Below the pieces are notes generated by a model, which saw only the letters and a list, made by a program, of their open reading frames with translations, did not search any database and was not told the origin of the DNA. Shown piece by piece: positions 1,026 to 53,743 of a stretch of DNA of 64,000 nucleotides. The translations under genes and the position numbers were made by a program. The stretch is from Escherichia phage StefiGeyer_Bas88, in the sequence record PQ850628.1; one strand, written 5' to 3'. Positions within the stretch are counted from its first letter, which is position 1, and each line of letters starts with the position of its first letter.

Positions 1026-1028
1026 TAT

Positions 1029-1336: not shown

Positions 1337-1366
1337 TTTAGGGCTGACTAGAAAGGGAGGTGAAAA

Positions 1367-1858
1367 ATGGATAATGTCGCATTGCCACCGATACAACTGA
1401 GCTTAAGCCCAGAAGGGATGGAATTCATCATGAAGCATGAAGGTATGAGAACTCGTGCTTACCAAGATTCCGCAGGTATCTGGACGATATGTGTTGGGGC
1501 TACGCGCGATATGAATGGGTATCCAGTTAGACAGGGATTAACGTATTCTATAGAGGATTGTCTAGCTCTGCTAGATAGAGACACACAAGACTCTGTTCGT
1601 GCTACTCAGAAAAATATAAGGGTTCCTTTGTTTACTAATGAGTTTGATGCTTTAACCTCTTTCAACTTTAATGTTGGCGGTACAGCTCTCGCTACTTCTA
1701 AACTAAGGAAAGTGATCAACGGAGATGTTAGAGGTGATGTTTACTCTGAGTTTTTGCGTTGGGATAAAATAACAGTCAGAGGTGTAAAACAACAGAGTCC
1801 GGGACTTCACAACCGAAGGGTTGCAGAAGCAGACCTATACACCACAGGTAAATACTAA
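1367..1858 (+). CDS. endolysin, T4/P22-type lysozyme (GH24 fold)
   Basis: HEGMRTRAYQDSAGIWTICVGAT and VPLFTNEFDALTSFNFNVG match the catalytic Glu/Asp/Thr region of phage lysozymes; strong RBS GGGAGG. Confidence 0.85.
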   Translation: MDNVALPPIQLSLSPEGMEFIMKHEGMRTRAYQDSAGIWTICVGATRDMNGYPVRQGLTYSIEDCLALLDRDTQDSVRATQKNIRVPLFTNEFDALTSFNFNVGGTALATSKLRKVINGDVRGDVYSEFLRWDKITVRGVKQQSPGLHNRRVAEADLYTTGKY

Positions 1859-1870
1859 TGGAGGTGCCTT

Positions 1871-2674
1871 TTGGCTATTGAAACTACAGCGGTAGTCACT
1901 ACCGATTTAAACCCCCTGTACCCTCGTGACAGGGATTATATTTATGAAGGGGCGGCTCAACTCCGCCTTATCAAACAAGTCTTGATTAACACATTCCCTA
2001 ACATCACTGAACCAGTGAACCTTTCTTCTGAATCCTTTAAGGCTTTGTCAGAGAAAATCACCTTTACTGGCGATGCTATGGATGTTGGTAATCTGATGAT
2101 TAAAAACCTGACTCCGGGCACTGGTGATAAAGATGCTGTAACCAAAGGTCAGATGGAAGCTTTCATGTTGAATTGGATGCAGAACAAACTGTATCGTATT
2201 GGTGCTTACTACATCACTGAAGAAGATATCAACCCCGGTGATTCTAGTTCTCTCGGTTTTGGCTCTTGGGCTAAAGTTACTGGTGTTGTTATGGGTACTG
2301 GTGTTGTCAACCCCGATGGGTCTGTTCCTAACGCCCAACGTGTTGAGTTCCAAGCAGGCGGTACAGGTGGTCGTGTGTTTAATACAGTTCGTACTGAGAA
2401 TATGCCTCTAACTACAATCAATGGTTCTAGTTTCCAAGTTAGCTCCTACTCTCACGCACACAACATTACGATGGGCCGAGGGGATGCTAGTGGTCATAAC
2501 AGCAGCCCTAACTGGTATAGTCCGGGTGGTGGTTATACTCAAGTAACTGACACAAACACTCACTCACACTCAATCTCAGGTTCTGTTAGTTTTGGTTATG
2601 ATGATATTTCTCGTCAACCTATCAACACATTACCGCCATTCCGAGCAGCACATATTTGGAGACGTATTAGCTAA
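1871..2674 (+). CDS. tail fibre-like structural protein (TTG start)
   Basis: GGAGG RBS 6 nt before TTG; Gly/Ser/Thr-rich beta-type sequence in the tail-fibre gene block. Confidence 0.35.
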   Translation: MAIETTAVVTTDLNPLYPRDRDYIYEGAAQLRLIKQVLINTFPNITEPVNLSSESFKALSEKITFTGDAMDVGNLMIKNLTPGTGDKDAVTKGQMEAFMLNWMQNKLYRIGAYYITEEDINPGDSSSLGFGSWAKVTGVVMGTGVVNPDGSVPNAQRVEFQAGGTGGRVFNTVRTENMPLTTINGSSFQVSSYSHAHNITMGRGDASGHNSSPNWYSPGGGYTQVTDTNTHSHSISGSVSFGYDDISRQPINTLPPFRAAHIWRRIS

Positions 2675-2683
2675 GGAGGTAGC

Positions 2684-5600: not shown

Positions 5601-5689
5601 TATTCTATAATGTTATAGATAATGATGTTAACAGTAATGCGTCTATGAATGGTTTAACCATAGAGTTTGCTGTTGGCGGTCGAAGATAA
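2684..5689 (+). CDS. tail protein with bacterial Ig-like (Big_2-type) domains
   Basis: 1001 aa; repeated Ig-like modules such as ITATVSPANAPNQTITWTSSNTNIATVSGTG...TAEGGRSAVCTVRV; RBS AAGGAGG. Confidence 0.55.
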   Translation: MALYPIKSLGAVGVIADQAPTDLAPNAFTNAINARFVEQRVFKTGGNAPLSYVDEDKDLTPLSFLSMPFDYYSAGNSFLVVGTDKKLYKLTDESLTDISRKVATATKKASATIKIYPVVSNIVPKETSVSMNFNQTKILEVEVTPTDAQNANLVWEVSNSSYGSIEVDPTDSKKATLTSKSVEGNLVVTVSTSDESISAQIAVNIIDGDSGIYLSQDTLTMRKGGTSTLTAITGKPSVTWSSSNPSLVSVSPNANTKTVVLTALGEGQVTITADNGTKTASCTVTAIPQIDSITLSQTDIQMSRGTQYILTATVSPANAPNQTITWTSSNTNIATVSGTGTEATITGLLAGYTEITAVTAEGGRSAVCTVRVDLSSRLASRAMSAMTITTEDPVEEPVVGSEEVTYFDADTIGIDTTGMAEGNNFYDYSNVMDLEGFGRAAMLANDPPLTGVTLDVIDASLDVGEEIVITATASPTGSYTYKWTVDKSGYVSTTSTTDSTLKLTAIRKGEVKVTCTVSQMVQKDYDAFEDYPWYHAIISNCAVATTHYETPQVKEFDSEYFTDLPGWGEQTVVDADGNPSVKKYNWKCERVRAFNNRLFALNMRESNASGVTTHYPLRLRWSNFAEENKAPQLWDDYAYDRAVSSDLAANIVGQTEALENGYAGYIDLADSNGSLLDVLPLKDYLFVYTEFETYIGSPTNNTYQPLMFKKLFNDSGILAPECVVEVEGGHFVVTQNDVILHNGASKKSIASNRVKNMIINEICLVNPIATRVHLHQDKKEVWVLYVGPGEPKESFACTKAAVWNYEFDTWSFRTIPYSYCIGLVDPPVLERGPIWADFQEITWDDPSIDKLVWRKDATNFRQRVTIIGSFLKGFYQVDIGALDYIYDRTNDVVIEKPLEMRLERTGIDFDNVTNEWNQKHINRFRPQVTGTGTYTFEAGGSQFSNEYGHNHSTKEFRVGVDRHVAVRLNHPYLFYNVIDNDVNSNASMNGLTIEFAVGGRR

Positions 5690-5695
5690 CAACTA

Positions 5696-5719
5696 GGGAG
5701 CTTCGGCTCCCTTTTATTG
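5696..5719 (+). terminator. rho-independent terminator
   Basis: GGGAGC-TTCG-GCTCCC followed by TTTTATTG. Confidence 0.5.
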
Positions 5720-5738
5720 TTTATAATTGGAGGTACTT

Positions 5739-6749
5739 ATGGGTGCTGGAGGTTTTCGTAAGAATACTGGAAGAAACAACACCACACTTCCCTACAACGT
5801 TGGGTTTCTAAACAATGTAGAGGATACGGATAAATACAACGTTGCAGTTTATGATGAATTGCAGAAAGTCAGTACAGCAACTAACCAGATGTTCCAAGCA
5901 ATCGACGAGATTCATGAAGAGATAGATGTTCGTATTAAAGCTCTTAATGCAATGAACCTACAGTTTGATGAACTTGAGAACCGAATTACTACAGAGATTG
6001 AAACAGCTATTGCTGATATTCAAACACAGATGGGTAATCTTTCTACTGAAGACATTTGGGATAGAAGCACTAACCCTCCGACTAAACTAGATGGTACAGT
6101 TGCAGGTTTCAAAACTTCTATTGAAGGCAATGATTTAAAGATTCAGACAGTACAAGGTATTGTGAATGAACAAGGACAAGAGATTGCTTTAGTTCAGACA
6201 GAACTTACTGCTCAAGGTACTCAGATTGCCGAAGTGGATGGTAAGGTTACTACTGTACAGAACTCTCTTTCTCAATACATGAGACTAGATAGTTACGAAG
6301 CTACATGGGGTGTCAACTCTTCTGTTAATGGTCAGTATGCTGGTGTTAAACTAACTAACAACGGTACGAACAGCCAATTCCAAGTAACGGCTAATAAGTT
6401 TATTGTTGGTGATGGCAACTCTGGTAACACTCCTTTTGTTTTTGAAGGTGGTAGAGCTAGAATGGAATTCGCTGATATCAAGAATGTCAACATTACAACT
6501 GCTCAGATTGCTAATGCTCGAATCCAATTTGCTCAGATTGATAACGTATGGATTCAAGATGGACAGATTGCTAACCTTACTGCTAACAAAATTACTGCTG
6601 GTTCTATGAGCGGTTCTAACTGGAGACTTACAGTTGGTGGAGATTTTGTTATGGGCGGTACAGGTGGGGCACAGCTGTGGATGAATGGTAACAGGATTGA
6701 TTTCTATGATGGTGGTGGTGCTTTGAGAATTAGAATAGGGAGTTGGTAA
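5739..6749 (+). CDS. tail fibre / fibritin-like coiled-coil protein
   Basis: ATG at 5739 preceded by GGAGG; long heptad-like N-terminal half, Gly-rich C-terminal half. Confidence 0.4.
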   Translation: MGAGGFRKNTGRNNTTLPYNVGFLNNVEDTDKYNVAVYDELQKVSTATNQMFQAIDEIHEEIDVRIKALNAMNLQFDELENRITTEIETAIADIQTQMGNLSTEDIWDRSTNPPTKLDGTVAGFKTSIEGNDLKIQTVQGIVNEQGQEIALVQTELTAQGTQIAEVDGKVTTVQNSLSQYMRLDSYEATWGVNSSVNGQYAGVKLTNNGTNSQFQVTANKFIVGDGNSGNTPFVFEGGRARMEFADIKNVNITTAQIANARIQFAQIDNVWIQDGQIANLTANKITAGSMSGSNWRLTVGGDFVMGGTGGAQLWMNGNRIDFYDGGGALRIRIGSW

Positions 6750-6750
6750 T

Positions 6751-7782
6751 ATGGCATATGGAATATGGTGTCAACCTGTAGGACCGGGGCCAGCCTCTCC
6801 GGCTCCTTTGTTTATCGACAGTGGGAGTACATTCCCTCAGATTAAGAACTCTATTAGTGGGAGTTTCAACTTTAATGGGGGTGGGAGATCTTTCCCTATT
6901 AATGGTTGGGATGGTAGCGGTCAGATAATTATCGTCCCTACTGGATCTCTGTGCTGGCAGTGGGAAGTTCCTCCTAACTTGGTTCCTGATGTTTATTGTG
7001 TTAATAACATTTATGTAGAGAATAACTCCTCTTTCAGAGTTAACTTAAACCAGAATCCCGGAAGTAACCCCCTGTTTGATTGTGGGTTTAACGTTTACCA
7101 AATCTACCCAAGAGCTGACAGAAATTACGGTATTACCTTCTCTAATACAGCTGATTACTTCTCTATCTCTGATGCTGGTGTTGTTGGTCAGTGTATTTGG
7201 GCTTGGCAAGGGACTATAAACGGCGCTTTACAGATTCCTGACATTGGTGGGTTTTATATGCCTAATGCTGTAGTCTTTGCTAACTGGTCTGACGGAGGGA
7301 TTGGCCTTTCTTATACATCTGGAGATAGAGTAATCCGTGTATATCAGAACAGATCTTATAATAACGGAAACTCTAACGAAGGCGGTTCTGTATTTGCTAG
7401 GGTCGCAGTATTCTGTAATGGAGCAGGAGTTCCTGAGCACAATGGTGGATTAAATATTTATTCTCCCGGAACAACTCAGTGTGTGTTCTCTACTAATAGA
7501 ACACCTTTTACTGTTGATAATTTTGTAGGTTCTGCTGGAGGTGATACTGGTATGGCATACCCAATGATACCCCTCTCCTCTGGTGTAGGTGCTATTCGGG
7601 GTAGTGGTAGTGGTTGGTACTATCAGCAAATGAGATCTCATGTAATGACAGGATCTTCTATAGGGACTGGCTATGGTAGGTACATGTTCCAGTGGTCTAC
7701 CAATTATGACCTAGGTTCTAACTCTGCCATTAACATATCAATTCCGGTAATAAATGCGGCTAAAGTTTTTGCGGGTCTATAA
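6751..7782 (+). CDS. tail fibre/receptor-binding candidate
   Basis: Gly/Asn/Ser-rich 343-aa protein within the tail gene block; no enzymatic motif recognised. Confidence 0.3.
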   Translation: MAYGIWCQPVGPGPASPAPLFIDSGSTFPQIKNSISGSFNFNGGGRSFPINGWDGSGQIIIVPTGSLCWQWEVPPNLVPDVYCVNNIYVENNSSFRVNLNQNPGSNPLFDCGFNVYQIYPRADRNYGITFSNTADYFSISDAGVVGQCIWAWQGTINGALQIPDIGGFYMPNAVVFANWSDGGIGLSYTSGDRVIRVYQNRSYNNGNSNEGGSVFARVAVFCNGAGVPEHNGGLNIYSPGTTQCVFSTNRTPFTVDNFVGSAGGDTGMAYPMIPLSSGVGAIRGSGSGWYYQQMRSHVMTGSSIGTGYGRYMFQWSTNYDLGSNSAINISIPVINAAKVFAGL

Positions 7783-7795
7783 TAAGGAGGATTTT

Positions 7796-8590
7796 ATGAC
7801 AATTCGCATGGGAGTGTCTGAGCTTGACCCTATGGTCCAGCAAGCTTCTAAGAAGTACGGCATTCCTGCTGCTCTTATCCATGCAGTCATTCAGAGGGAG
7901 TCTAGTGGTAGACCTTCTGTTGCATCAGGTACAGGGCCAGTAGGTTTAATGCAAATCAGTAAAGGGTTGGCTAAAGACTATGGATACAAACTAGAAGATC
8001 GTTTAGACCCAGCCAAAAATATTGACATGGGTGCTAGATATATTCGTGATAATTTGAAAGCTTTTAATGGTGATGTGAAGAAAGCTATGGTGGGTTATTC
8101 TGAAGGGACTGGTGGAGCAAAACAAATGTTCGCTGGTAAGAAGGGGTTTACACCTCAAGCCTTGGATTCTATGAACAACAAAAACTTCCTCCCTTTCTAT
8201 ACAGCCAATGATGCTGCTGGTCAGGTGGCTAATCCGGTTGGGGCTTTACAATCAGCACAGCCAGTGAACCAATTCTCTCCTGAGTTGGTTACTAAAGAAG
8301 GTGCTGCTAATGCTCCTACTCAAGCTGAGATTGCTGCTGCTAAGACAGGAGCTCTAGGCGGTTCTCCTGCTGAGTTCTATTCTGACGATGCAGAAGAGGC
8401 TGGGGAAGATCAGAAACCACAACAGAACTTCGGTAATGCTGCACTAGCTGCTGCTGCGATGTTAGCAGGAAAGGCTCCTAAGTCTCAAACAGTTCAGAGA
8501 GCACATGCACCAACTCAAGCAGGTTCTCAATACAGCCCACAGACACAAGCCGTTCTTAGACGTTTGGCAAGTGTTGGTGTTATTAAATAA
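7796..8590 (+). CDS. virion-associated lytic transglycosylase (SLT domain) with Ala/Gln-rich C-terminus
   Basis: AVIQRESSGRPSVASGTGPVGLMQIS matches the SLT catalytic Glu and GLMQ motif; ATG at 7796 after AAGGAGG. Confidence 0.7.
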   Translation: MTIRMGVSELDPMVQQASKKYGIPAALIHAVIQRESSGRPSVASGTGPVGLMQISKGLAKDYGYKLEDRLDPAKNIDMGARYIRDNLKAFNGDVKKAMVGYSEGTGGAKQMFAGKKGFTPQALDSMNNKNFLPFYTANDAAGQVANPVGALQSAQPVNQFSPELVTKEGAANAPTQAEIAAAKTGALGGSPAEFYSDDAEEAGEDQKPQQNFGNAALAAAAMLAGKAPKSQTVQRAHAPTQAGSQYSPQTQAVLRRLASVGVIK

Positions 8591-8602
8591 TAAGGAGGAC
8601 GT

Positions 8603-9652
8603 ATGTCTTTATTCGGGTCTGCTTCTAAGACTAAAACTACAGTGGCTCCATCCTCTCAGGTTGATGCTCTGTTAAAACAGATTGTGGCTAATGCTCAGAA
8701 TATGAACAGCAATGATGCTGGATTTATTTCTCAGCAACTAGCTGGCCTTAACCCTAACCAACAAGCTGCTCTATCTAACTTAGCTAACTCTTCCACCTTG
8801 AATCAACTGAGTAATATGTACACTCCTCGGACACAACAAGGTCTGGATCAGATGAACACTTTGGCTCAGAGATATCAAGACTTGGCTAATAGTTCAATCA
8901 GTGCTAGTGATGTTAACAAGTTCAGTTCTGGTCTAAACAGTTCTGCACTGGCTCAGGCAACAGGAAAGGCTGCATCTAACGTATCTCTTGGTAATGGTTC
9001 TGATTCAGGATCTCTTCGTAGGGCTGCTGCTCAGGGTGCTGCTTTGAATTCTGCTAATACCAACCTGTCTCGTACTATCTCTGGTAAGAACTTAGGTGTT
9101 GACGCTTTAAGATCTAACAGTTCCTTCCAGCAAGGCCTTCTGAACGCACAAACAGGGTTGGCTGGACAAAACCTTAACCTCGGCTCTCAAGGCACTCAGG
9201 CAGCTCAACAGGCTATCCAGAATCAACTTACTGCTGGTAACTTACAACAGCAGCAAGATCAGACTCAAGCTGACCTTAATTGGCAGAATGCTATTGGCAG
9301 TCAACAGTATGGATGGAATCAACTCAACAACCAATTAAATGTATTAAACTCAGTAAGTCCTGTGGCTGGTTATACAATTACTAATAAAGGAGCCTCTCCT
9401 AACACATCCCAGCAAATTCTTGGTGCTGGAGTGACTGGTCTAGGTATTGCTGGTAGATTGGGTGCTTTCACTCCTAGTCAACAAACTCAGAATGCTTGGA
9501 ACTCTTATAATGCTTCGGGTGGTCAATCTGGTATGGCTGGTCCTATGATCGGTGGGTCTAACCTGTCCAATCAGAGTAATCAGAATAACTGGTTGTCTAC
9601 AGCTGGGAGTAATATTTTGGGTGGTGTTCTAGGTGCCTTCGGGGCAAACTAA
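8603..9652 (+). CDS. Q/N/S-rich internal virion protein (paralog A)
   Basis: Low-complexity Gln/Asn/Ser/Ala-rich 349 aa; shares NQ.EAL.NL...L..LS..Y....Q.GL block with the next gene. Confidence 0.45.
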   Translation: MSLFGSASKTKTTVAPSSQVDALLKQIVANAQNMNSNDAGFISQQLAGLNPNQQAALSNLANSSTLNQLSNMYTPRTQQGLDQMNTLAQRYQDLANSSISASDVNKFSSGLNSSALAQATGKAASNVSLGNGSDSGSLRRAAAQGAALNSANTNLSRTISGKNLGVDALRSNSSFQQGLLNAQTGLAGQNLNLGSQGTQAAQQAIQNQLTAGNLQQQQDQTQADLNWQNAIGSQQYGWNQLNNQLNVLNSVSPVAGYTITNKGASPNTSQQILGAGVTGLGIAGRLGAFTPSQQTQNAWNSYNASGGQSGMAGPMIGGSNLSNQSNQNNWLSTAGSNILGGVLGAFGAN

Positions 9653-9663
9653 GGAGGTAAATA

Positions 9664-10635
9664 ATGGCAGGTTTATTCGGTGGAGGGGGTAGCTCTTCTA
9701 CTTCCAAAATGACAAGACCTGAATATATTCAATCCTATATTGACCAACTGGTTAATCAGGTGAATAACACAAGTTCAGGCGATTATGTTTATAGAGATAA
9801 TGTAGGTTTCAATCAGAACCAAACTGAGGCTCTGAATAACCTTTCTCAATCAGGAGCACTTGGTGCTCTGTCTTCTCAATATATGGATGCTGCTCAATCT
9901 GGTCTGGGATATCTCGACCAAGCCAATTCAGGCTATAACAACCTATCTAACTCTGGTCAAATTACTGGTGAACAGATTGGTGCCTTGGCTGGTCAGCTCT
10001 ATGACGATGAAGCTGTTCAGTCTGCTATTACAGCTAACAATGAACAGACACAACAGGATTTGGCTCGTAATGCTCTACCTCAGTTGGCTCAGCAATATGC
10101 TGGACAGCAAGGTTCAGGTGCTAGAATGGCTAAATCTTTTGCTCAAGGTGATGCTCTTAATCAGATGCAGAACACAGCAACCAATATTACCAACAGTGCT
10201 TATGATTCAGCTCTTAATCAAGCTCAAAGCATTCTGTCAGGTAATAGACAATCTCAAGCTTCTGCTCTAAGTGGACTCTCTGGAATTGGTAGTTCTTTAT
10301 CTAATCTAGGAACCCAAGCAGGTCAACTATCCCAGCAGCAGATGAAGAATCAGTGGGCAGCAGGTTTGCAGCAACAGCAACAGCAACAAGCTGGTCTGGA
10401 TAATGCTTATACAAATGCTCAGAATGCAGCCAATTGGGGCTGGCAAGACATTAACAATCAACTCGGTGCAGCTGGTGTTCTCAACGGTGCTTTAGGTACT
10501 ACAACTACTAATAAGGTTTCAGGTGGTGGGAGTGGTTTCTTAGGCGGTGCTATGAGTGGCGCAGCAGCAGGCTCTTCCTTCGGACCTTGGGGTGCGTTAG
10601 CAGGTGGGGTTATCGGTGGGTTGGCTAGTTCTTAA
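9664..10635 (+). CDS. Q/N/S-rich internal virion protein (paralog B)
   Basis: Tandem paralog of 8603..9652; Gly-rich termini; RBS AAGGAGG. Confidence 0.45.
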   Translation: MAGLFGGGGSSSTSKMTRPEYIQSYIDQLVNQVNNTSSGDYVYRDNVGFNQNQTEALNNLSQSGALGALSSQYMDAAQSGLGYLDQANSGYNNLSNSGQITGEQIGALAGQLYDDEAVQSAITANNEQTQQDLARNALPQLAQQYAGQQGSGARMAKSFAQGDALNQMQNTATNITNSAYDSALNQAQSILSGNRQSQASALSGLSGIGSSLSNLGTQAGQLSQQQMKNQWAAGLQQQQQQQAGLDNAYTNAQNAANWGWQDINNQLGAAGVLNGALGTTTTNKVSGGGSGFLGGAMSGAAAGSSFGPWGALAGGVIGGLASS

Positions 10636-10649
10636 TTAGGAGATTAATT

Positions 10650-12281
10650 ATGCAACAAACATCTTACGCGTATCTTCGTAGTCAAGACCCGCGAAATCAG
10701 ATTTATGGTGATCGTCAGAGAGGGGTTACGGCCTCTCCTTACATGTCCAGACCTGCTGGTCCAGCAGCTGACTTATCTATGTATCAGCGTCCAGCTCTTC
10801 CTGCTGTCTTAGGAGCTACAGTTGAACAAGCACAGGCTGACCAAGAAGCTATGATGAATCCGGGATTCAAGCAACGTCTTTATGAACAGCAGGGTATTTC
10901 CACTCCTACTAGTTTGGCTGGTATTGATGCTGGCATTAATCCGGGTGATGAAGGCTCTATGATTCCTGCTGATGTAGCTCCTGCTTCTAGCCCTCTTCCG
11001 GTTACAGCTCCTGCTAAACCAATTGAAGAGTCAGATAAAGAGTTTGCCCCTGAACAAGTACAACAGGCACAAGGTGTCATGAATACTATCGCTTCTGGTG
11101 TTCCTCAGGGTGAAGGTATGAGCGGTGCTACTCGTGCTGCTGATCAGGAACGTGTGAATCAGGATATTCTTAAAGTTGCACAATCTAAGAACCCAGCAGA
11201 TGCGTGGAAGACTATGCAGAAACAGCCTTTCTATCAAAACTCTAGTTTCTATACAGGATTGATGGGTGTGGGTCTTTCTATTATGTCTGGTAAATCTCCG
11301 ATTGAGGCATTCCAGATTGGCTCTGGTATGGCATCTCAGGATGAAGCTAAACAACAATTAGAACTGAACCGTGATAACCTGATCGAACAAGGTTACTCTC
11401 AGGATTCTGTAGCTGCTGCTGTAGCTGCTGGTGATCCTTCTCTTCTGAAGATGCGTCAGATTAGTCCTCAAGAGAAGATGGCTCTAGCCGCTCAAGACGA
11501 AGCTCGTGCTAATCAAGAGTGGGACAGACGTCAACAGATTCAAGAGAATTCGATGCGGGAACGTGCTGCTGAAACTCGACGTGCTGCTGAACAACGTGCT
11601 GATGCTCAGTTTGAGAAACAGAAAGAGTTGATTGGTTATCGTGATCAAGTTAAGGCAGACCGTGCAGAACAAGCTGCTCAAAGTTTTAACTTTAACCCGA
11701 AAGAAGTTCGTCTTGCTCAGAACACTGCTGAAGGTACGGTTGCTAAACAGTGGGCAGAGAAGGCAGGACTGTTTAACCAGTCTCATAAAGACTTGGATTT
11801 GGCAGACAAAGCAGTTAAGGATGGTGATTATCAGACTGCTCGTTCTGCTTACATGCAGGCTATTATGAACTCCGCAAGAGCTGAGATTGGTGCTAACCGT
11901 TCTCTGCAAGCTGATGACTTATCACACTTCGCAGAAGACCCATCCATTCTTGTTAAGGTAGGTAACACTTGGTCTCTTAAAGCTGGTTATCGTCCATCTG
12001 ATGCTGCTCTGTCTTATGCTCGTAAACAAGCGACGGTCGGTGCTACTTCTGCTGAGAAAGGTGTTAAAGATTCTAAGAAAGCAACTATTGAAGCTTATGT
12101 TGGTTCTGGTATGGACAAGAAACGTGCAACTGCTCTTGTTAACCGAGCTATTCCTTCTGCTGGTTTCTATGACCCTCTCGGTGTATTCGAAGCAGAGTCT
12201 GAAGCAGCTGTTGGTGGTTCAGCAACCAATCCTAAACTTAACGGTGCTTTGTCTTCTAACACTGATTGGATGACTCAGTAA
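10650..12281 (+). CDS. internal virion protein
   Basis: 543 aa, Ala/Gln/Glu-rich, in the block between the virion transglycosylase and the giant virion protein. Confidence 0.35.
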   Translation: MQQTSYAYLRSQDPRNQIYGDRQRGVTASPYMSRPAGPAADLSMYQRPALPAVLGATVEQAQADQEAMMNPGFKQRLYEQQGISTPTSLAGIDAGINPGDEGSMIPADVAPASSPLPVTAPAKPIEESDKEFAPEQVQQAQGVMNTIASGVPQGEGMSGATRAADQERVNQDILKVAQSKNPADAWKTMQKQPFYQNSSFYTGLMGVGLSIMSGKSPIEAFQIGSGMASQDEAKQQLELNRDNLIEQGYSQDSVAAAVAAGDPSLLKMRQISPQEKMALAAQDEARANQEWDRRQQIQENSMRERAAETRRAAEQRADAQFEKQKELIGYRDQVKADRAEQAAQSFNFNPKEVRLAQNTAEGTVAKQWAEKAGLFNQSHKDLDLADKAVKDGDYQTARSAYMQAIMNSARAEIGANRSLQADDLSHFAEDPSILVKVGNTWSLKAGYRPSDAALSYARKQATVGATSAEKGVKDSKKATIEAYVGSGMDKKRATALVNRAIPSAGFYDPLGVFEAESEAAVGGSATNPKLNGALSSNTDWMTQ

Positions 12282-12300
12282 GACCTAAGTCCTATCTCTT

Positions 12301-12312
12301 ATAATGTATATA
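12301..12312 (+). promoter_or_regulatory. phage-specific promoter-like motif TAATGTATATA
   Basis: Motif about 35 nt upstream of the 12347 ATG; same motif recurs in gene-matching orientation at 21691, 21762, 27855 and 32887. Confidence 0.3.
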
Positions 12313-12346
12313 GGAGGTAGGACATTTTTATTTATAAGGAGAAATT

Positions 12347-15300
12347 ATGGCTAACTTAAAACCGTGGGAAGAAGCTTCTAAAAGCCCTGCGTATTTGAAT
12401 GCCTCCCCTGAGCAACAGTCTCAGATGCGAGAACAGTATAAAGCAGCGGGTGGAACGATTCCTGAGGCTGCTCCAGCTCCTAAACAAGAAGAGCAACCGG
12501 GGTTGGTTGGTGATTTTGCCCAAGGTGTGTCCAACGCTATTCAATCAGGTGGTGCAAACATTGCAGCTAGTGCTGCTAGAGGTATTGGTGGATTAGTTGA
12601 GATTGGAGAAAATCTAGCTGGTACACAGACAAGTTACGGTAAGCGTATTCAAGACAACTCTAAAAACTTACTAGAAGAACGTCTCTCTCAAATCGAAGAT
12701 GGTGTAGGTAAATCTGTAGGTCAGTATGCTGGCGTTGCCGCTGATATTGGTCTTACGGTTGCTAACCCAGCTGTAGCTGCTGCTGTTATTGCAGCTCGTG
12801 AAACAGGTAGAGCTTATGCAGACCAAACTCCAGAAGAGGGTGAAGAGAAGTCTGTTCTTGATGCTGGTTTAGTTGGTGGTGCTAACTTTGCAGCTCAGAA
12901 GATTCTTCCGGGGATGACAGGCACTGCTTCTACTACTCTAGGTCGTGTTGGTCAGAGTGTAGCATCTAACGCAGTGGCTGGTGCTAAAGGTGGTGCTCTT
13001 GTAGGTGCTGCTGAAGCACAGAACAAATATGGTGATGACACTACTCTTGCTAATATTATTGAAGGTGCTGTAGAAGAAGGTGCGATGGGTGCTGCTTACG
13101 GTGGGGCTATTGGTGGGGTTCATGGATTGATAAGTCGTCCTAGTCCTCAAGTCTTTGACCGTACTCCAGAACACGTTAAGACTGACATTGCCGCTGAAGA
13201 TGAAGCTATTCGCTCAGCTAAAAATGCAGACGAACTAAGAGAGGCTTACTCTAAAGCTGATAATGCTAACACAGCTTCTGCTCTTAATCTCCTCGATGAG
13301 AACGGTTTCCGTGTTACTGATGCTGTGGCTATGGACTCTCCTGCTGCTCAGCGTATCCTTAATACTGATCAAAGTCGTGCTGAGAAGGCTGCTACTATTC
13401 TGGAAGATCGTTCTAATGTTCCTGGTTTAAATCCTCTTGCTGCTCCTAATAAGAAGCAAGGTAAAGCTAACGCAGACAACGAACATAACCAGAAACAAGC
13501 TGTGGCAATGAAAGATGCAATGGCTGATTATACAAAAGACAACACTAAATCTTTGTCTGATGTTCTGGATAATCTTGATCGTGAATTAACAGCTGCTCGT
13601 GCCAGTGGTGATTTTACTGGTAGTGCTATGGACATTAAGAATCGTACCCAAGCAGATCGTGATTTTATTGATGCTTATAAGACTTTCTATAACGAAGCTA
13701 ATCGATTCAAAGCTCGTGATGGTGAAGACTTTAATAACTTCATAGAGAAAGCTACAGAGCTTCAGAAACTAGCTGATAATGTATCCCCAGAAATGAAAAC
13801 TGCTATTGGTGGTTTGAAGAAACTTAAAGGAATGCCTGAAGGTTTCAACCCAATCCAAGATGCTTTCACTCTGAATAACACAGCTAAGTTGATGAGTAAT
13901 CAAGACCGTGGTTGGACTTCTCTGACTGCTGATGGTTTTAAAGAAGCTGCTCCTCCAGTTCTGATTAAGAATCCTCTTGGTGCTGCTAAGCATGTTCTTA
14001 ACCGTTTCCGTTCTGACCGTGCTCGCTCTCAACGTGAAAGCCAGCAGGCTGCTAACAGTGAAGCTATTCGTTCTCTTGCTCGTAGTGATATGGAAGTAAC
14101 TCGTGCTCGTGCTCAGGCTGATGAAGCCCGTGCTGCGATGGAGAAAGAACCTGAAGTTGATGACATTAAATTTAAGACTCAAAATGACATGGAAATCGAA
14201 CCGGTTCGGGAGCCTTCTGCTACTACTGTGACGGAAGAAATTTCCTCTCCAGAAACCTCTCCTTTAACTGCTCGTGATTTGGTCGCACAGAGACGTGCTT
14301 TGAAGGAAGCTGAAGCTAGACGTCAAGAAGCCGAAGCTAACAAGGTTCAGGAAGAACCAACTCCAGAGCCAGTTCCACAAGAACCAGTTACTACCGCAAG
14401 GGATTTAGTTGCCCAGCGTCGTGCTGTTGCAGAAGCTCGTAAACGTCAAGAAGCAGAAGAGGCTAGCAAGGCTGCTGAGAGCGTTCCTGAGGAGCCTATC
14501 GTTCAAGCCGAGCCATTACCTACCCGTGCTCCTAAAGCTCCTGAGGTTGAGCCTGAGCCTGTTAAACCAGCTACTGGAATAGAGCGTCTGGCTGCTATGT
14601 CAAGTGCTGCCCGTCAAGCTACTAAAGATCGTGCAGATCGCTTTGCTCGTTCTCTGTATACGGCAGGTGCTAAGGCTAAAGCCACAGCTGAGAACTTCCT
14701 TTCTTATAAAGGTGACCCGAAAGAGTTGATGCGTCGTATCCGTCAGGAAGACCAAGCCAACAATGCTGAACGTCATGCTGAGATGGCTCGTAATCAACTT
14801 GCTTCTCAACAGGGTATTGCTGCTGCTAAGTCACAACGTGTTCGTTCTTCGTTTGCTGATTGGGTTAAGGAACGTGGTCTACCTTCTGATATTGCTACCA
14901 AGGCATTACGTGCTGAGGAGAAAGGTATTGGTGGGAACGTGACTAGTCTAGACTCACTGAAGCGTAGGTCTGAACGTCTGTATCAGAAACAACGTGATGA
15001 TGAATTTAATAGGATGTATGAAGAAGCTCTTGCAGAGAATAAGAAGCTTGATAAAGCTGATGCTCCTAAGCTGGTTGACCAGAAGAAAGAGTTACACAGC
15101 GAAATCAATTTACTTCTTGATGCAGAGCCATTACGTCCAGCTCAAAAAGATGCTATGCGTAAGTTGATGGAAGACTTTGTAGATGGGAAGTTTAAAGCTT
15201 CAGAGAAGGCTGGAAGGGAAGATGCTTTGGAAGTGGGACAGATGAAGGATATATGGGATGGCTTCATTAACACATATAACCGTGAAGTTAACATGTTCAA

Positions 15301-16765
15301 CAAAGCTAATAAGAACTCTCAGTACGAAGCAGCAGCTAAACATTTGCAAGCACGTCAAGAACGTCTTGAGACGCTCCGTAACAGGGCTAAAGCTCGTAGT
15401 GATGCCAAGGCAGCAATAGAGACAGAAAGACAGTCTCTCGAGGCTATAGCGGCTCAGAAATCGGAGATGGAGAACCTGTTGAAAGATTTACCAGAGTCGG
15501 TACGTGAGTCTCAGGAAGGTCGTACACTGAAACAGTTAGCAGCTCACCACGATAAGAACTCTCCTGTACCACCGGAGCGTTTCCGTAGTATTATCGAACG
15601 TATCCACAACGCAGAAAGTGATTACATTGACCGTAAGCGTCGTCTCACTGAAGCGGAAGAAGATGCTCGAGAAGCTAAGTGGAATAAGATGTACGAACAG
15701 GCGGAAGAGATGAACCGTAAATACGACATTGATTCCCGTGTACAACGTGACAAGAAGCTCAAAGAAGCTCAGGAAGCAGAGAACGATCGCATGGCAATAC
15801 AACGCCAACGTGATGACATTCATAAGCGCCTGATGCGTTCTATGGAGGATAAAGGGATTCCTAAAGAAGATGCAGAAGTCTTTGCAGGTTCTTATATGGA
15901 TAACCGTTACTCTCTTCTGGAGAAACCTATGACTCCTACTGAGCACCAGAATGCTCGTTCTCGTATTGAATCTGATATTTCAAAGTTTGCTAAGGATTTT
16001 GAGAAGATGACACCTATCGAGAAAGATATTGCTAAGGCAACTGGTGACATGGATGGTAAGGTAGAGGTGGATGCAGATACTTCGAAAGCTATCGAAGATG
16101 CGAAGAAGGTAGATTCTGAGTTGAAGAAACTTCAGGATGAAGAGTTGGAAATGGAGAAAGTTCGTTCGGCATTGCCAGAAGATGAAAGATCTCAAGCCTC
16201 CTCTGATATACTGGAAAGCATTAAGAAGCAGGAAGATGACTTTGCTAACAAAGCAGAGAAAGCTTTTATCGAAGGGAAAGACTTGCAGGAGCTGGCTAGT
16301 GTAGCAGAGGTTCTAGATAGAGTTCATGGTGCTGACAAGGCTGGTAACAATCGTCGCTTTGTACGTGCATTACAAACTGCTGCGGAGAACAAGAAACAAT
16401 ATGGAGATAATCCAGTGGCTTGGTTTAGTGCTGATGATTACTCTGCTATTGCGAAACTTGGTGCTGCTTCAGCGGGTGGTAACAAATCTAGAGCACTGGA
16501 GAAAATCTTTGGTTCTACTGCTGAACAAGCTAAAGGGAAACTTTTAGGGCGGGATGATGTAGCGAAGATTAGACGTGTGATTGAAGAGAATCCTGATGTT
16601 AAGATTCCTTCTTACAAGACAACTACTCGACAAGAGTATTTACAGTTCTTGGAGAAGTATAATGACGAGGGAGAATTGAAAGTCAAACGTGGTTCTCTGT
16701 CTGACAAGTTGGAGAGGAGTAAGCGTCAAGCTAAACTCCGTGTTAGAGTTCGAGCTAAGGAGTAA
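12347..16765 (+). CDS. giant internal virion/ejection protein with charged coiled-coil core
   Basis: 1472 aa; long E/K/R/A-rich helical region; internal protein repeat TARDLVAQRRA(L/V)..EA..RQEAE; Pro/Glu linker. Confidence 0.45.
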   Translation: MANLKPWEEASKSPAYLNASPEQQSQMREQYKAAGGTIPEAAPAPKQEEQPGLVGDFAQGVSNAIQSGGANIAASAARGIGGLVEIGENLAGTQTSYGKRIQDNSKNLLEERLSQIEDGVGKSVGQYAGVAADIGLTVANPAVAAAVIAARETGRAYADQTPEEGEEKSVLDAGLVGGANFAAQKILPGMTGTASTTLGRVGQSVASNAVAGAKGGALVGAAEAQNKYGDDTTLANIIEGAVEEGAMGAAYGGAIGGVHGLISRPSPQVFDRTPEHVKTDIAAEDEAIRSAKNADELREAYSKADNANTASALNLLDENGFRVTDAVAMDSPAAQRILNTDQSRAEKAATILEDRSNVPGLNPLAAPNKKQGKANADNEHNQKQAVAMKDAMADYTKDNTKSLSDVLDNLDRELTAARASGDFTGSAMDIKNRTQADRDFIDAYKTFYNEANRFKARDGEDFNNFIEKATELQKLADNVSPEMKTAIGGLKKLKGMPEGFNPIQDAFTLNNTAKLMSNQDRGWTSLTADGFKEAAPPVLIKNPLGAAKHVLNRFRSDRARSQRESQQAANSEAIRSLARSDMEVTRARAQADEARAAMEKEPEVDDIKFKTQNDMEIEPVREPSATTVTEEISSPETSPLTARDLVAQRRALKEAEARRQEAEANKVQEEPTPEPVPQEPVTTARDLVAQRRAVAEARKRQEAEEASKAAESVPEEPIVQAEPLPTRAPKAPEVEPEPVKPATGIERLAAMSSAARQATKDRADRFARSLYTAGAKAKATAENFLSYKGDPKELMRRIRQEDQANNAERHAEMARNQLASQQGIAAAKSQRVRSSFADWVKERGLPSDIATKALRAEEKGIGGNVTSLDSLKRRSERLYQKQRDDEFNRMYEEALAENKKLDKADAPKLVDQKKELHSEINLLLDAEPLRPAQKDAMRKLMEDFVDGKFKASEKAGREDALEVGQMKDIWDGFINTYNREVNMFNKANKNSQYEAAAKHLQARQERLETLRNRAKARSDAKAAIETERQSLEAIAAQKSEMENLLKDLPESVRESQEGRTLKQLAAHHDKNSPVPPERFRSIIERIHNAESDYIDRKRRLTEAEEDAREAKWNKMYEQAEEMNRKYDIDSRVQRDKKLKEAQEAENDRMAIQRQRDDIHKRLMRSMEDKGIPKEDAEVFAGSYMDNRYSLLEKPMTPTEHQNARSRIESDISKFAKDFEKMTPIEKDIAKATGDMDGKVEVDADTSKAIEDAKKVDSELKKLQDEELEMEKVRSALPEDERSQASSDILESIKKQEDDFANKAEKAFIEGKDLQELASVAEVLDRVHGADKAGNNRRFVRALQTAAENKKQYGDNPVAWFSADDYSAIAKLGAASAGGNKSRALEKIFGSTAEQAKGKLLGRDDVAKIRRVIEENPDVKIPSYKTTTRQEYLQFLEKYNDEGELKVKRGSLSDKLERSKRQAKLRVRVRAKE

Positions 16766-48063: not shown

Positions 48064-48269
48064 TACAACCTCTTCTTTGAACTTAAAAAAGGACTCTCCT
48101 AAGAGAGCCAAGCTTTAAGGCCAATTAAATAGATATCACCCAATATCTGTGGATAACCTGCTCTTAAAATATTCTATCCGACGGATGTTCGAGGACTATT
48201 CCTCTCCCTAGCATCGGCCCCATACGGGTAAGATTAAATTAAGTTTAGGTTAGTTGAGCCAGAATAGCT

Positions 48270-48305
48270 CACATAGCCCTCTGATACTCACAAGGGCTAT
48301 AGATG
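48270..48305 (-). repeat. conserved post-stop hairpin element (copy A)
   Basis: ATAGCCC...GGGCTAT stem; about 37 nt near-identical to 53479..53518. Confidence 0.5.
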
Positions 48306-48557
48306 TTACTCTGTGGCTCCGTCAAAGCGAAGGATTGCTGTTGGAACAGGGATTACAACCATGTCAATCTCTAAACGGAAAAGATGTCCTGTACTTAGCT
48401 GAACTGCTGTTACAGGTTTAGCGATACCACCAACAGATGCTGAGGGGATTCGAATAAAGAAATCCCCCGGATATTCCGTTGCACGAAATACATCTCCCGG
48501 TGACATATCCTTTACTTGGATAATTGATTCAGGAGGGGTTTTATTAGCAATTTGCAT
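48306..48557 (-). CDS. small protein, PGDxF family
   Basis: SPGDVFRA motif shared with five other small ORFs. Confidence 0.4.
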   Translation of the reverse strand: MQIANKTPPESIIQVKDMSPGDVFRATEYPGDFFIRIPSASVGGIAKPVTAVQLSTGHLFRLEIDMVVIPVPTAILRFDGATE

Positions 48558-48790
48558 TACAGACCTTTCTTAGCACGATCTTTGGCAGTTTTACCAGTGC
48601 GGATACGATGGGAAACATTAACCAGCTCACCACCTTCGACGATGGTCACGCTTTTATTTTTCGCAATATCAAACACAGATTTCTCTGTGCCGCCCAGACG
48701 AATCTGGCGAGGTTCGCTGAAGGTTTGGGTTGATTTGGACTGGAACTGGAACGGCTGGCGGATGGCATCAATTGCGCTAACTTTAGACAT
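48557..48790 (-). CDS. hypothetical protein
   Basis: 77-aa ORF. Confidence 0.3.
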   Translation of the reverse strand: MSKVSAIDAIRQPFQFQSKSTQTFSEPRQIRLGGTEKSVFDIAKNKSVTIVEGGELVNVSHRIRTGKTAKDRAKKGL

Positions 48791-48818: not shown

Positions 48819-49232
48819 TTAAACAACGAATTGGAACGCTTCGTATCCAAACTTATAAGAGAAGTCGTGCTTAAACTTCACTACACGACCACGATCACGG
48901 AAAGATTTCAGACGGCTGCTGAACCCAGCCATTGGCTCAGGGTCAATAGGACTACGAATCTTCATAGCTACAGAATGCAGCTTGAAGCGTTTACCAGTGC
49001 TACAGGCCATCATCACATACTCCATACGAGTAGTCCAGATGTTGAGCACCATGCTTGTTTTCTCCGCTGACCAACCAGTCTTACGGGCGATTTCCTTATG
49101 GATGTTAAGCTCCAAAGGAAGAGGGAATTGCTTGTTGAATGAAGCCGGATAAAGCTTGACCAGAAGATCAATGTTTTCTTTATACGTGAGGTAGGCCAAT
49201 TTCTTGCTTACGTTGGGGAATTTCCCAGACAT
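48819..49232 (-). CDS. ProQ/FinO-domain RNA-binding protein candidate
   Basis: KKLAYLTYKENIDLLVKLYPASFNKQFPLPLELNIHKEI...MVLNIWTTRMEYV...GKRFKL aligns to the ProQ/FinO N-terminal domain pattern. Confidence 0.4.
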   Translation of the reverse strand: MSGKFPNVSKKLAYLTYKENIDLLVKLYPASFNKQFPLPLELNIHKEIARKTGWSAEKTSMVLNIWTTRMEYVMMACSTGKRFKLHSVAMKIRSPIDPEPMAGFSSRLKSFRDRGRVVKFKHDFSYKFGYEAFQFVV

Positions 49233-49430
49233 TTTTGAAGCTCCAAAACAGCGCCGAAAAGAGAGGCGTCATAGTAGCTAAAGGGAGGAGAGAAGAGGGC
49301 TTATTTACTTGCCTTTTTCTGTCCGTTAATGTACCAGATAACTGAGCCATCAGGCTGTCGTTGACCGAAGCCTTTCAAGTTAACCATTTCTTCTTCAGAG
49401 TAGGCACGTTTTCTCACTGATTTTCTCCTG

Positions 49431-49688
49431 TCAATAGAAGGTGTGTGTAGAGTCGTCGTTCATAGATAACCAAACAAAGAAGACAATCACACAGAAAGCA
49501 ATAATACCGAGAATTGCAAGGATTATAGTGTTAGCTAATGTGATATCTAACACGCTTTGCAGATACATAAAGAACTGTACGACACCACATATCATTAGCA
49601 CGACACCAACAACAATGAGGAGCCAATATGTGCAGAGAAGGGCTGCATCCAATAGTGACACATATTTTGGATGATCTTTACGTTTCAC
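49431..49688 (-). CDS. small membrane protein (2 TM)
   Basis: Two long hydrophobic helices. Confidence 0.35.
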   Translation of the reverse strand: MKRKDHPKYVSLLDAALLCTYWLLIVVGVVLMICGVVQFFMYLQSVLDITLANTIILAILGIIAFCVIVFFVWLSMNDDSTHTFY

Positions 49689-49944
49689 TAACCTTCTCCA
49701 CTAAATCCAGAGTTGCTGATTCAAATACAACACCAACTGGCATATTAGGTGCCATATTACGAACGTACCCACTCTGCATAGACACGGCTCGAGAGTATTC
49801 AGAACCGTTAGAGCTTTTGTTTACCTTCATGTAAAGGGTTTGTTCTTTATCTTCTTTAAGGGTAAAGAAAGAGCCGGGAAGAATCCCCTGAACAGTCAGA
49901 GGGATATCTGCAACATGAGTCTTATTGATAGTAAGAACTGTCAT
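49678..49944 (-). CDS. small protein, PGDxF family (divergent)
   Basis: GILPGSFFTL ... LYMKV pattern. Confidence 0.3.
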   Translation of the reverse strand: MTVLTINKTHVADIPLTVQGILPGSFFTLKEDKEQTLYMKVNKSSNGSEYSRAVSMQSGYVRNMAPNMPVGVVFESATLDLVEKVSET

Positions 49945-49947
49945 TGC

Positions 49948-50202
49948 TTATTCCTTAATAATTGCTTCAGCTTTAATAGGAATAACAGCAACATCTTTAC
50001 GAGGCGCTGTCGCTCGGCCTGTGTTAAGACAGGCTACAAGTCTATGCTCGTCCGCACCCTTAATGCACAAGCGAGTGGAGAACTCTGTAGAGAGTAAGAT
50101 GTATAAATCACCATCTTCACTGTTAGGGTACATGAAGCAATCCCCAAGTCGCAAAGCACTGAGAGGTATTGAATTTTTACCTGCTGGCATGTTAACTTTC
50201 AT
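49948..50202 (-). CDS. small protein, PGDxF family (divergent)
   Basis: ALRLGDCFMY ... LYILL pattern. Confidence 0.3.
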   Translation of the reverse strand: MKVNMPAGKNSIPLSALRLGDCFMYPNSEDGDLYILLSTEFSTRLCIKGADEHRLVACLNTGRATAPRKDVAVIPIKAEAIIKE

Positions 50203-50478
50203 TTAACCACCTTTAGTTATGGACCAATTTATGAGAGAACTCTCGGAAGAATGCTTTCATAAATAGGGGGAGGGGACGAATCCTCCCATATCCTATTAAT
50301 TAATGTTGCATGTAAGACCTAACAATCCGATGCTGTAGTGGATAGCGTAAAATGCTTACCGGCATTAAACCCAGCCCATGAGGGGCTTATGTGATTAAAA
50401 TGCTCAACATTGAGCGGTTAGTTGATAGGAGATCTGAAGTCCTATCTCAAAGGACTCTCGTAAGAATCCTTCACGATA

Positions 50479-51443: not shown

Positions 51444-51520
51444 TGGTGCACCCTACAGGATTCGAACCTGTAACCAACGACTTAGAAGGTCGCTGCTCTG
51501 TCCAATTGAGCTAAGGGTGC
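51444..51520 (-). tRNA. tRNA-Arg(UCU): tRNA-Arg, anticodon UCU, CCA encoded
   Basis: Folded by hand: acceptor GCACCCU/AGGGUGC, D-stem GCUC/GAGC, anticodon stem GCGAC/GUCGU with loop CUUCUAA, T-arm ACAGG-UUCGAAU-CCUGU, 3' ACCA. Confidence 0.85.
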
Positions 51521-53086: not shown

Positions 53087-53478
53087 AGAACCAATCACCT
53101 TGACGTTTACGGATGTTAGTTGTCAGACGAAGCATGGCAGACTCAATCTTCAGAGCACCATTTGCTACTGCATCCATACGTTCAGGACGGTTCATACGCT
53201 TGGTTGACTTCTTCATAACGTTCTCTCTTTGTTAGTGGAGGCAGGGTTGCCAGTTAATATAAAGGGAAGCCCTACACGTTAAGGCTTCCGCTTGTACAAA
53301 CTGTCGAGAACTTTCTACCCCTAGATTGTTCTCTATCCCAAACCGATACATACCCCTACATATCGGAATGCCATTCGAAAATTAACAGGTTTTAGTCTAT
53401 CACCGGATGTTTGAGACGAGTCTCGCCCTAGCGGTGAGCCATATGGCATTGAGATTATAGTTAATTGAGGAACATCCT

Positions 53479-53518
53479 CACATAGCCCTCTGATAAGCAC
53501 AAGGGCTATAAGTTGATG
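53479..53518 (-). repeat. conserved post-stop hairpin element (copy B)
   Basis: Near-identical to 48270..48305, again directly after the stop of a PGDxF gene. Confidence 0.5.
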
Positions 53519-53743
53519 TTACTTGTTGGTCAGTCGTACATTAGGCACAAGTCTGATTGCTGCTGTTTTCCTCTCTCCAGTAACCTTACCAGTAGAGAGA
53601 TTAACGTAATAAGCAGTGACTTCACCATCACCAGCTGTACGCATATAATAACTGCTTCCAGTTCTGTCAAACTGAAAAACGTCTCCCGGCTTTACATCAC
53701 CAAGAGTTGTGACGCTTTGCTTTTTATCAATATCAATCTTCAT
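53519..53743 (-). CDS. small protein, PGDxF family
   Basis: DVKPGDVFQF ... VPNVRLTN. Confidence 0.4.
   Translation of the reverse strand: MKIDIDKKQSVTTLGDVKPGDVFQFDRTGSSYYMRTAGDGEVTAYYVNLSTGKVTGERKTAAIRLVPNVRLTNK

Follow-up and report, generated by a model that had tools for sequence, protein, structure and literature searches.

We analysed a window of 64,000 nucleotides (nt) of Escherichia phage StefiGeyer_Bas88 (sequence record PQ850628.1; the window is the whole stretch at this length), in which a minus-strand gene at 48819..49232 encodes a protein of 137 amino acids (aa) belonging to the FinO/ProQ family. The 3 kb around this gene was 98% identical to Escherichia virus TH43, 94.5% to ECBP2 and 92% to SU7. 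SU7 is placed in the Gordonclarkvirinae, genus Suseptimavirus, of the phiEco32 group of virulent podophages, and by its sequence the window is that of a Suseptimavirus-like virulent coliphage. Plus-strand genes occupy 75..16765, and from 17441 on the large open reading frames (ORFs) lie nearly all on the minus strand. The FinO-type gene sits amid many small minus-strand ORFs without assigned function, in an apparent transcription unit of ~2 kb that consists of small early-type genes and has terminator-like hairpins at both ends. Its start follows the hairpin at 50287..50268, at a place where a promoter is annotated in SU7, and it continues with three small ORFs, a 38-aa ORF, the FinO gene, two more small ORFs and a terminator. 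From the 38-aa ORF onwards, the features are as follows.

49301..49417, minus strand: 38-aa ORF with GTG start, homologue of phiEco32 phi32_94; upstream flank of an insertion/deletion (phiEco32 stretch L006 873-1024 = window 49405..49252)
49241..49244, minus strand: Shine-Dalgarno sequence GGAG, read from the sequence 8 nt before the ATG; SU7 has a ribosome-binding site annotated at the same place
48819..49232, minus strand: FinO/ProQ-family gene, 137 aa, single domain; ATG-to-stop ORF (Pfam, PHROG, AlphaFold, Foldseek)
48557..48790, minus strand: 77-aa ORF, homologue of phiEco32 phi32_93; downstream flank of the insertion/deletion and candidate for co-transcription (phiEco32 stretch L006 1084-1319 = window 48790..48555)
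48306..48557, minus strand: 83-aa ORF with a PGDVF motif, from a small paralogous family; its stop codon lies within the conserved GUAAC that opens the structured RNA
48070..48313, minus strand: structured RNA copy A, ~240 nt, non-coding, at the 3' end of the operon; core at 48174..48231 (alignment, RNAalifold, covariance model 81 bits)
48085..48109, minus strand: intrinsic terminator GGCUCUC-UUAG-GAGAGUC + CUUUUUU (stem 48109..48092, then the U tract; found by scan, annotated in SU7, with compensatory stem changes)

The ATG-to-stop ORF, its Shine-Dalgarno sequence and a third-position bias among substitutions together identify 48819..49232 as a real gene, and the sequence comparisons indicate that it is under purifying selection. 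Third codon positions hold 15 of the 19 nucleotide differences from the SU7 orthologue and 17 of the 21 from the ECBP2 orthologue, with three amino-acid changes in each case. The product matched PHROG 18901 (E=1.7e-62) and is basic (isoelectric point 10.0; net charge ~+13; 24 Lys+Arg and 11 Asp+Glu). No second FinO-like ORF was found in the window. Pfam returned no family for the 77-aa ORF at 48557..48790 and no informative family for the ORFs neighbouring the FinO gene. With the NCBIfam and PADLOC models we obtained no FinO, defence or anti-defence match; a weak L31 match lay far below the cut-off.

The first-pass annotation, made from the sequence alone, had proposed a phage-borne ProQ/FinO-domain RNA chaperone on the basis of a residue pattern in the N-terminal part of the protein. 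This pattern is present in outline (LAYL at 12-15, YPASF at 28-32, PLELNIHKEI at 39-48, L63..W66..Y72 and GKR at 80-82), with two of the quoted spacings off by one. The Pfam ProQ/FinO family PF04352 matched aa 18-87 over profile positions 5-78 of 109 (E=4e-6; 27.2 bits versus a gathering score of 27.0), and no second Pfam domain was found in the 137-aa protein. Phage relatives at 28-34% identity scored 37-69 bits on the same model. A search of the Protein Data Bank (PDB) with the single 137-aa sequence gave noise only (E>1), and a word-indexed homologue search with it returned its own cluster only. Reaching the distant FinO homologues required an alignment of phage relatives. A profile of five such sequences (A1) matched ProQ (5nb9; E=2.6e-14), RocC (1.8e-9) and FinO (1.7e-6), and also NMB1681 and Lpp1663. 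The same seven solved sequences were matched at E values of 2.8e-11 to 2e-4 (ProQ 5NB9, 2.8e-11; FinO, 2.9e-7) by a second profile (A10), whose 24 members all belong to the protein's own subfamily and came from an exhaustive search of 1.84 billion representatives. Both profiles recovered all seven solved FinO-domain sequences, which represent five proteins, and no other significant match.

An AlphaFold model computed from a 40-sequence alignment reached a predicted local distance difference test score (pLDDT) of 90.7 and a predicted template modelling score of 0.84. It contains helices at 10-27, 44-52, 56-66, 70-79 and 98-110 and strands at 81-83 and 93-95. An extra C-terminal helix at 114-128 is confidently predicted as well and is shared only with the phage subfamily. 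When the model was compared with the PDB by Foldseek, the top 26 matches were all FinO-domain structures (RocC, NMB1681, FinO and Lpp1663; probability 1.0), and the next match had E>2. We are therefore confident, as far as the model goes, that the protein adopts the FinO fold, a helical bundle with a beta-hairpin. Because Pfam, transitive homology, profile searches and predicted fold agree, membership in the FinO-domain family is well supported. Thus the proposal of a ProQ/FinO-domain protein in a phage, here a virulent one, was borne out by the Pfam threshold, two independent profiles and the predicted fold. The first-pass annotation had suggested a FinO/ProQ profile search and a structure prediction as checks, and both came out in its favour: the profiles recovered five FinO-domain proteins beside the Pfam match, and all significant PDB matches of the model were FinO-domain. 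RNA binding by the protein has indirect support from its isoelectric point of 10.0 and from the suitable terminator that closes its operon; it remains an inference, as do the RNA chaperone activity and post-transcriptional control that were also proposed.

We mapped RNA-contact residues by explicit alignments to the paper describing the RocC-terminator crystal structure (PMC9674577). The Tyr/Arg of the 3'-nucleotide pocket, Y87/R97 in RocC and Y70/R80 in ProQ, hold the 3'-terminal nucleotide in RocC, and an N-cap Ser/Thr of the RocC S70 type reads hairpin phosphates (PMC9674577). In the phage protein, Y72/R82 align with RocC Y87/R97 and are invariant in alignments A2, A6 and A10, including all 24 subfamily members, in which W66, R69 and E71 are likewise invariant. 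The conserved Thr (T67 = RocC T82) and the helix N-cap Ser (S55 = RocC S70) are also kept, and the modelled helix begins at 56. By alignment and model, the protein is a divergent, minimal FinO-domain protein.

The gene has a patchy distribution. By tblastn against phage genomes we found 21 near-identical copies (95-99% amino-acid conservation), and relatives of 28-41% identity in Salmonella 7-11-like, Erwinia Ea21-4-like, Aeromonas LAh-like and Shewanella phages. A copy with 98.5% identity is present in Bas87, a phage of the BASEL collection. The exhaustive search returned 45 clusters at E≤1e-3 and 11 at E≤1e-10, with P0026 as the closest non-trivial relative. Within the phiEco32 group, ~21 of ~108 related records carry the gene; the homologous flanks are 59 nt apart in phiEco32 and 461 nt apart, with the ORF, in the window. 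From these comparisons, the FinO gene is an accessory single-gene insertion or deletion in the phiEco32 group. In phiEco32 itself, where the gene is absent, the 59-nt filler (L006 1025..1083) holds the inverted repeat GCGTAGGGAATTCCCTCTACGC.

In 7-11-like and Erwinia Ea21-4-like phages and in uncultured phage contigs (including those that carry P0026), FinO homologues adjoin genes for phosphoribosyl pyrophosphate (PRPP) synthetase and nicotinamide phosphoribosyltransferase (NAMPT; nicotinamide adenine dinucleotide salvage), and the uncultured contigs also have TerC/TerD genes nearby. Salmonella phage 7-11 apparently encodes two different FinO-fold proteins (BFVD G0X555 and G0X575). The homologues of the window protein in 7-11 and PKM.Lu.22.1 bear an additional conserved C-terminal domain of ~100 aa.

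The first-pass annotation had also noted several conserved hairpins in the region. This observation held: terminator-like sites are in excess, and covariation-supported RNA structures lie nearby. Between 46 and 56 kb we counted 19 terminator-like sites versus 7.4±3.2 expected, 13 of them on the coding (minus) strand. One of these structures, copy A, closes the operon. It is built from a P1 hairpin, a long-range UAACCU/AGGUUA pairing, a hairpin P3 and a helix P4 that encloses a 7x7 internal loop and a hairpin P5. Copy A is conserved in 102 phage records of phiEco32-like and 7-11-like phages at 70-100% identity, with 84-89% across Kuravirus and Nieuwekanaalvirus and 70-75% in the 7-11-like Salmonella phages; the FinO homologues of these last phages share only ~30% identity with the window protein. 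RNAalifold predicted a multi-helix structure with compensatory double changes in 12 of 59 pairs. In a pair-count test on a 17-sequence alignment of copies A and B (B is described below) with four hand-specified helices, standard pairs occurred in all 372 cells and double changes in 8 of the 22 pairs. The covariation score was 0.357, compared with 0.125±0.016 in shuffled alignments, and was equalled by none of 500 shuffles; slid controls gave 32-48% pairing. In the 7x7 internal loop, CUAGGG(A/C) stands opposite (G/A)AACAUC with non-Watson-Crick covariation (A..G or C..A) in 17 of 17 sequences; there was one metagenomic exception. Since several G-U pairs form only on the minus (sense) strand, the structure is specific to that strand. 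A scan of the whole window with Rfam 15 brought only the tRNA to its gathering score, and a permissive Rfam scan of 47900-49500 gave only two weak sub-threshold matches. Judged by its sequence and covariation, the RNA matches no described family and is a candidate for a new class of phage structured RNA.

A perfect DnaA-box 9-mer, TTATCCACA, lies within copy A at 48156..48148 (minus strand) and is invariant in 13 of 13 copy-A sequences. We considered copy A as a replication origin and rejected this as the main explanation, because the helices show compensatory changes and many G-U pairs exist in the minus sense only, and because the 9-mer uses its 5' half to pair with the conserved UAACCU and is broken (TTATCACAG) in phage phi G17. 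The 9-mer is thus probably part of the RNA, and may in addition have a role at the DNA level.

Related elements lie upstream of the operon.

50261..50478, minus strand: region C, conserved and non-coding, just upstream of the operon; ends in a GGGAGG..CCUCCC hairpin, with an SU7 promoter annotated just downstream
53396..53523, minus strand: structured RNA copy B, paralogue of the core (P1, P3, P4, loop, P5); nhmmer E=7e-12, covariance model 60 bits
53265..53289, minus strand: terminator-like hairpin after copy B (terminator scan)

Copy B lies 5 kb upstream of copy A and corresponds to its 5' two-thirds. Relative to copy A, its P3, P4 and P5 helices are fully compensatory, and it is also present in SU7, ECBP2, NJ01, KBNP1711 and phiEco32. 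Region C occurs in 149 phage records, including N4-like G7C-type phages (77-82%) and PKM.Lu.22.1 (71%). Its folding (minimum free energy z-score −3.67) was better than in 200 of 200 shuffles, and its alignment contains compensatory changes. Region C and copy A have the motifs CAACUAACC and UAUCCAC in common.

The covariance model of the core found both copies in the window, the 7-11-like copies and the second copy of phiEco32. It also found a site in the N4-like phage phi G17 (1338-1386; 43.5 bits) that had not been used in building the model. This site belongs to a 1.3-kb stretch without annotated coding sequence (phi G17 stretch L053, 1270..2600), which holds the copy-A-like RNA, a region-C-like element at 1440-1680, GC-rich hairpins and a tRNA at 2319-2392, and so resembles, from its sequence, an 'RNA island' of an unrelated phage family. 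A divergent core was matched by the covariance model at 3083..3140 (plus strand) of JBOFGJ010000684.1 (L024), a phage-like contig binned to a Flavobacterium metagenome-assembled genome; its P4 is AUAGCG/CGCUAU, and the contig is otherwise without similarity to the window. The RNA motif therefore reaches beyond enterobacterial phages. We discarded as chance pattern matches the IMG/VR contig L010, where the match is located inside a coding region, and five GC-rich soil contigs that lack P3 and P4.

Paralogues of the 83-aa ORF accompany these RNAs. Four ORFs of ~75-88 aa with the motif (D/L)xxxGD(V/I)F...YM(K/R)...TG lie on the minus strand at 48306..48557, 49678..49944, 49948..50202 and 53519..53743. 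One such PGDVF-type paralogue stands directly 5' of each of copies A and B, with its UAA stop inside the conserved GUAAC of the RNA, and homologues also precede the structured RNA in 7-11-like phages and in EP335. Between the small early-type ORFs there is also a tRNA-Arg gene (anticodon TCT) at 51444..51520 (minus strand), which is annotated in SU7 as well.

A FinO domain grips a terminator hairpin at its base, along with a 3' U tail of at least four U, and ProQ-class ligands typically carry a 5' A-rich tract that pairs with part of the U tail (PMC7367173, PMC9674577). On the 5' side of the operon terminator lies the A-rich UUUAAAG, which could base-pair with the U tail. We inspected eight other stronger minus-strand terminator-like sites in the region and saw no comparable A-rich flank at any of them. 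Because its terminator has the form of a ProQ ligand with an A-rich flank, the operon's own 3' RNA is the best candidate ligand. We hold it moderately probable that the locus encodes, as an accessory gene of the phage, a minimal single-domain FinO/ProQ RNA-binding protein, whose binding to terminators and 3' ends serves phage transcripts. During infection, the protein would clamp the bases of intrinsic-terminator hairpins that have short 3' U tails. The bound RNAs would thereby be shielded from 3' exonucleases, aided in pairing with their targets, or both, and the prime candidate among them would be the ~240-nt structured RNA that closes the protein's own operon. In the distantly related 7-11-like Salmonella phages, a FinO homologue and the structured RNA are encoded on the same strand, ~6 kb apart. 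Many phages have the RNA or its relatives but no such gene; the phage protein would therefore act as a supplement to host ProQ, or in its place, and not as one half of an obligate pair with the RNA.

Several observations weigh against this reading. The single-sequence Pfam score exceeds its threshold by just 0.2 bits and is borderline when taken alone. The Gly of the pocket beta-turn (RocC G52), described as 'nearly completely conserved' in the family (PMC9674577), is Asn43 here (LELNIH versus LAIGxH) and Gly in all 23 other subfamily members. The N-cap Arg position (RocC R75) is ~80% Arg in the family, and R75D lowers the affinity of RocC more than 100-fold (PMC9674577); the phage protein has Ser60 at this place, a position that varies across the phage subfamily (R, H, S, G, N and others). 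A56 and E57 stand in place of RocC K71 and S72, the beta-hairpin has a three-residue insertion, and the near-invariant G87 is Ser. Among the examined subfamily, the Asn for the pocket Gly, the Ser for G87 and the hairpin insertion are confined to the Suseptimavirus orthologues. As to the ligand, the structured RNA is present in Kuravirus, Nieuwekanaalvirus and G7C-like phages that have no FinO gene, and in the stretches searched the FinO genes of Erwinia, Aeromonas, Shewanella and PKM.Lu.22.1 phages and of P0026 contigs had no copy of its motif nearby. Finally, a literature search that covered few subscription-journal papers found no experimental or binding study of any phage FinO protein.

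With the RNA present in phages that lack the gene, and not found near the FinO genes of those other lineages in the stretches searched, co-occurrence gives no support to a dedicated protein-RNA pair. Since the RNA family has a far wider distribution than the gene, any partnership is facultative, with host ProQ as an obvious alternative partner. A wider scheme would make the FinO protein the partner of a new family of modular, highly conserved structured RNAs, comprising copies A and B and region C in phiEco32-like, 7-11-like and N4-like G7C-type phages. The two would form a chaperone/small-RNA system for host takeover, in which each RNA is the terminator-capped 3' end of an early unit and host ProQ substitutes where the gene is absent. 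To this scheme we give rather little credence.

The protein could instead be directed at the host. It would bind host RNAs of the ProQ/FinO class (type I antitoxin small RNAs, small RNAs from 3' untranslated regions, mRNA 3' ends) or compete with ProQ, and so rewire host RNA stability or disarm RNA-based functions during takeover. Fold and pocket are those of ProQ, which binds hundreds of terminators by shape and not by sequence. A dispensable single-gene cassette is, moreover, typical of host-interaction accessory genes, homologues elsewhere adjoin the NAMPT and PRPP-synthetase auxiliary genes, and the conserved phage RNAs do not need a FinO gene. Yet the sequence names no host target, and the anti-defence and defence models gave no match. 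Host-directed activity is also compatible with service to phage transcripts, as a shape-reading binder would see phage and host terminators alike. As the principal function of the gene, we regard it as unlikely.

Still less probable, in our view, is that the FinO fold was kept while terminator binding degenerated, and that the protein has since acquired a different role, such as protein binding by way of the extra C-terminal helix or recognition of another nucleic-acid shape. N43, S60, A56, E57 and S87 all replace conserved or RNA-contacting residues, the hairpin carries its 3-aa insertion, the predicted helix 114-128 is found in the phage subfamily only, and the 7-11-type relatives have their further ~100-aa C-terminal domain. 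Set against this are the invariance of Y72, R82, W66, R69 and E71 in the 24-member subfamily, the strongly basic character of the protein and the purifying selection on its gene. Asn can take the same turn geometry as Gly, and the Arg position varies through the whole subfamily, yet the family is conserved.

That 48819..49232 is not a gene, or a spurious ORF with a chance resemblance to FinO, might be argued from the borderline Pfam score (27.2 versus 27.0) and from the 'hypothetical' label in most GenBank records, but is refuted by the Shine-Dalgarno sequence, the third-position bias, the 95-99% amino-acid conservation in 21 phages, profiles that reach every solved FinO domain and a confident FinO-fold model, and we give it practically no weight.

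A FinO protein in a phage is a less novel idea than the first-pass annotation implied. UniProt labels the 98%-identical SU7 protein A0A8F3C9D8 'ProQ/FinO domain-containing protein', and for some phage relatives the existing annotation reads 'proQ', 'RNA chaperone' or 'sRNA-binding protein'. In BFVD there are FinO-fold proteins from phages 7-11 (two), Cronobacter GAP52, Aeromonas 4_4572 and Sinorhizobium phiM9 and from a Rhizobium phage. The 2021 genome paper on phage KASIA discusses a FinO-like gene without testing it and states that such proteins occur 'rarely in phage genomes'; phage-encoded members of the family receive no more than a generic mention in a 2023 review (PMC9977716). The window protein is thus a divergent new member of a known family, recognisable already by automatic annotation. 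As far as shown by the databases and literature covered, the adjacent structured RNAs are undescribed: our literature search, which did not reach the phiEco32 transcription studies, found no paper describing them.

Among the partners of bacterial small RNAs, FinO/ProQ proteins form the third major class, and functional work has been done entirely on chromosomal or plasmid copies. If the reading favoured here is true, lytic phages supply RNA 3'-end binders of their own to a host already equipped with ProQ. Because near-identical phages differ in having or lacking the gene, its contribution can be tested directly, and the natural Gly-to-Asn and Arg-to-Ser changes can serve to test which contacts a FinO domain needs. 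The phage is easy to study, and Bas87 of the BASEL collection has a near-identical copy of the gene. The neighbouring RNAs matter independently of the protein, as they retain 70-89% nucleotide identity where FinO homologues share only ~30% aa identity.

Among characterized systems, the best structural match is the FinO domain of Legionella pneumophila RocC, known in complex with the RocR terminator (7RGU/7RGT; PMC9674577; Foldseek E=7.7e-4, target-normalised template modelling score 0.62-0.74). The pocket Tyr/Arg, the conserved Thr and the N-cap Ser are common to both. Identity is ~20%, however, and RocC G52, R75, K71 and S72 are replaced by N43, S60, A56 and E57 in the phage protein, which is also without the RocC-type C-terminal region and has instead a 3-aa hairpin insertion and an extra C-terminal helix.

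The N-terminal FinO domain of E. coli ProQ (5NB9) is the best sequence-profile match (2.6e-14 with A1, 2.8e-11 with A10), and ProQ is encoded by the host of this phage. Full-length ProQ has ~230 aa, with a FinO domain, a basic linker and a C-terminal Tudor-like domain, whereas the phage protein, at 137 aa, has neither linker nor Tudor-like domain. In alignment A6, the ProQ residues R32, K35, K54, R58 and R62 are replaced by L38, E41, A56, S60 and N64. ProQ recognises terminator hairpins with at least four U, often with an A-rich 5' flank (PMC7367173). Neisseria meningitidis NMB1681 (3MW6) and Legionella Lpp1663 (6S10), recovered by both fold and profile searches, resemble the phage protein in consisting of a FinO domain alone with short extensions. 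They differ from it in being chromosomal, with global or unknown regulons, and the phage protein is 15-26% identical to them in structural alignments.

F-plasmid FinO (1DVO) with FinP, and FopA with Inc of pCol1B9 (PMC9977716), are likewise encoded by mobile elements and provide the precedent of a FinO protein serving one element-encoded, terminator-ended structured RNA (PMC9977716). Their partners are cis-antisense RNAs that control conjugation or replication, whereas the phage locus shows no evident antisense pair, and the RNA proposed as ligand lies on the sense strand, at a 3' end, and is also found where the protein is missing. Further counterparts are annotated homologues in other phages, namely the 98% identical SU7 protein A0A8F3C9D8 and, at 28-41% identity, those of 7-11 (G0X555), Erwinia and Aeromonas LAh phages and Shewanella phage KASIA (p031), which, like the window gene, are small early-region genes of virulent phages.

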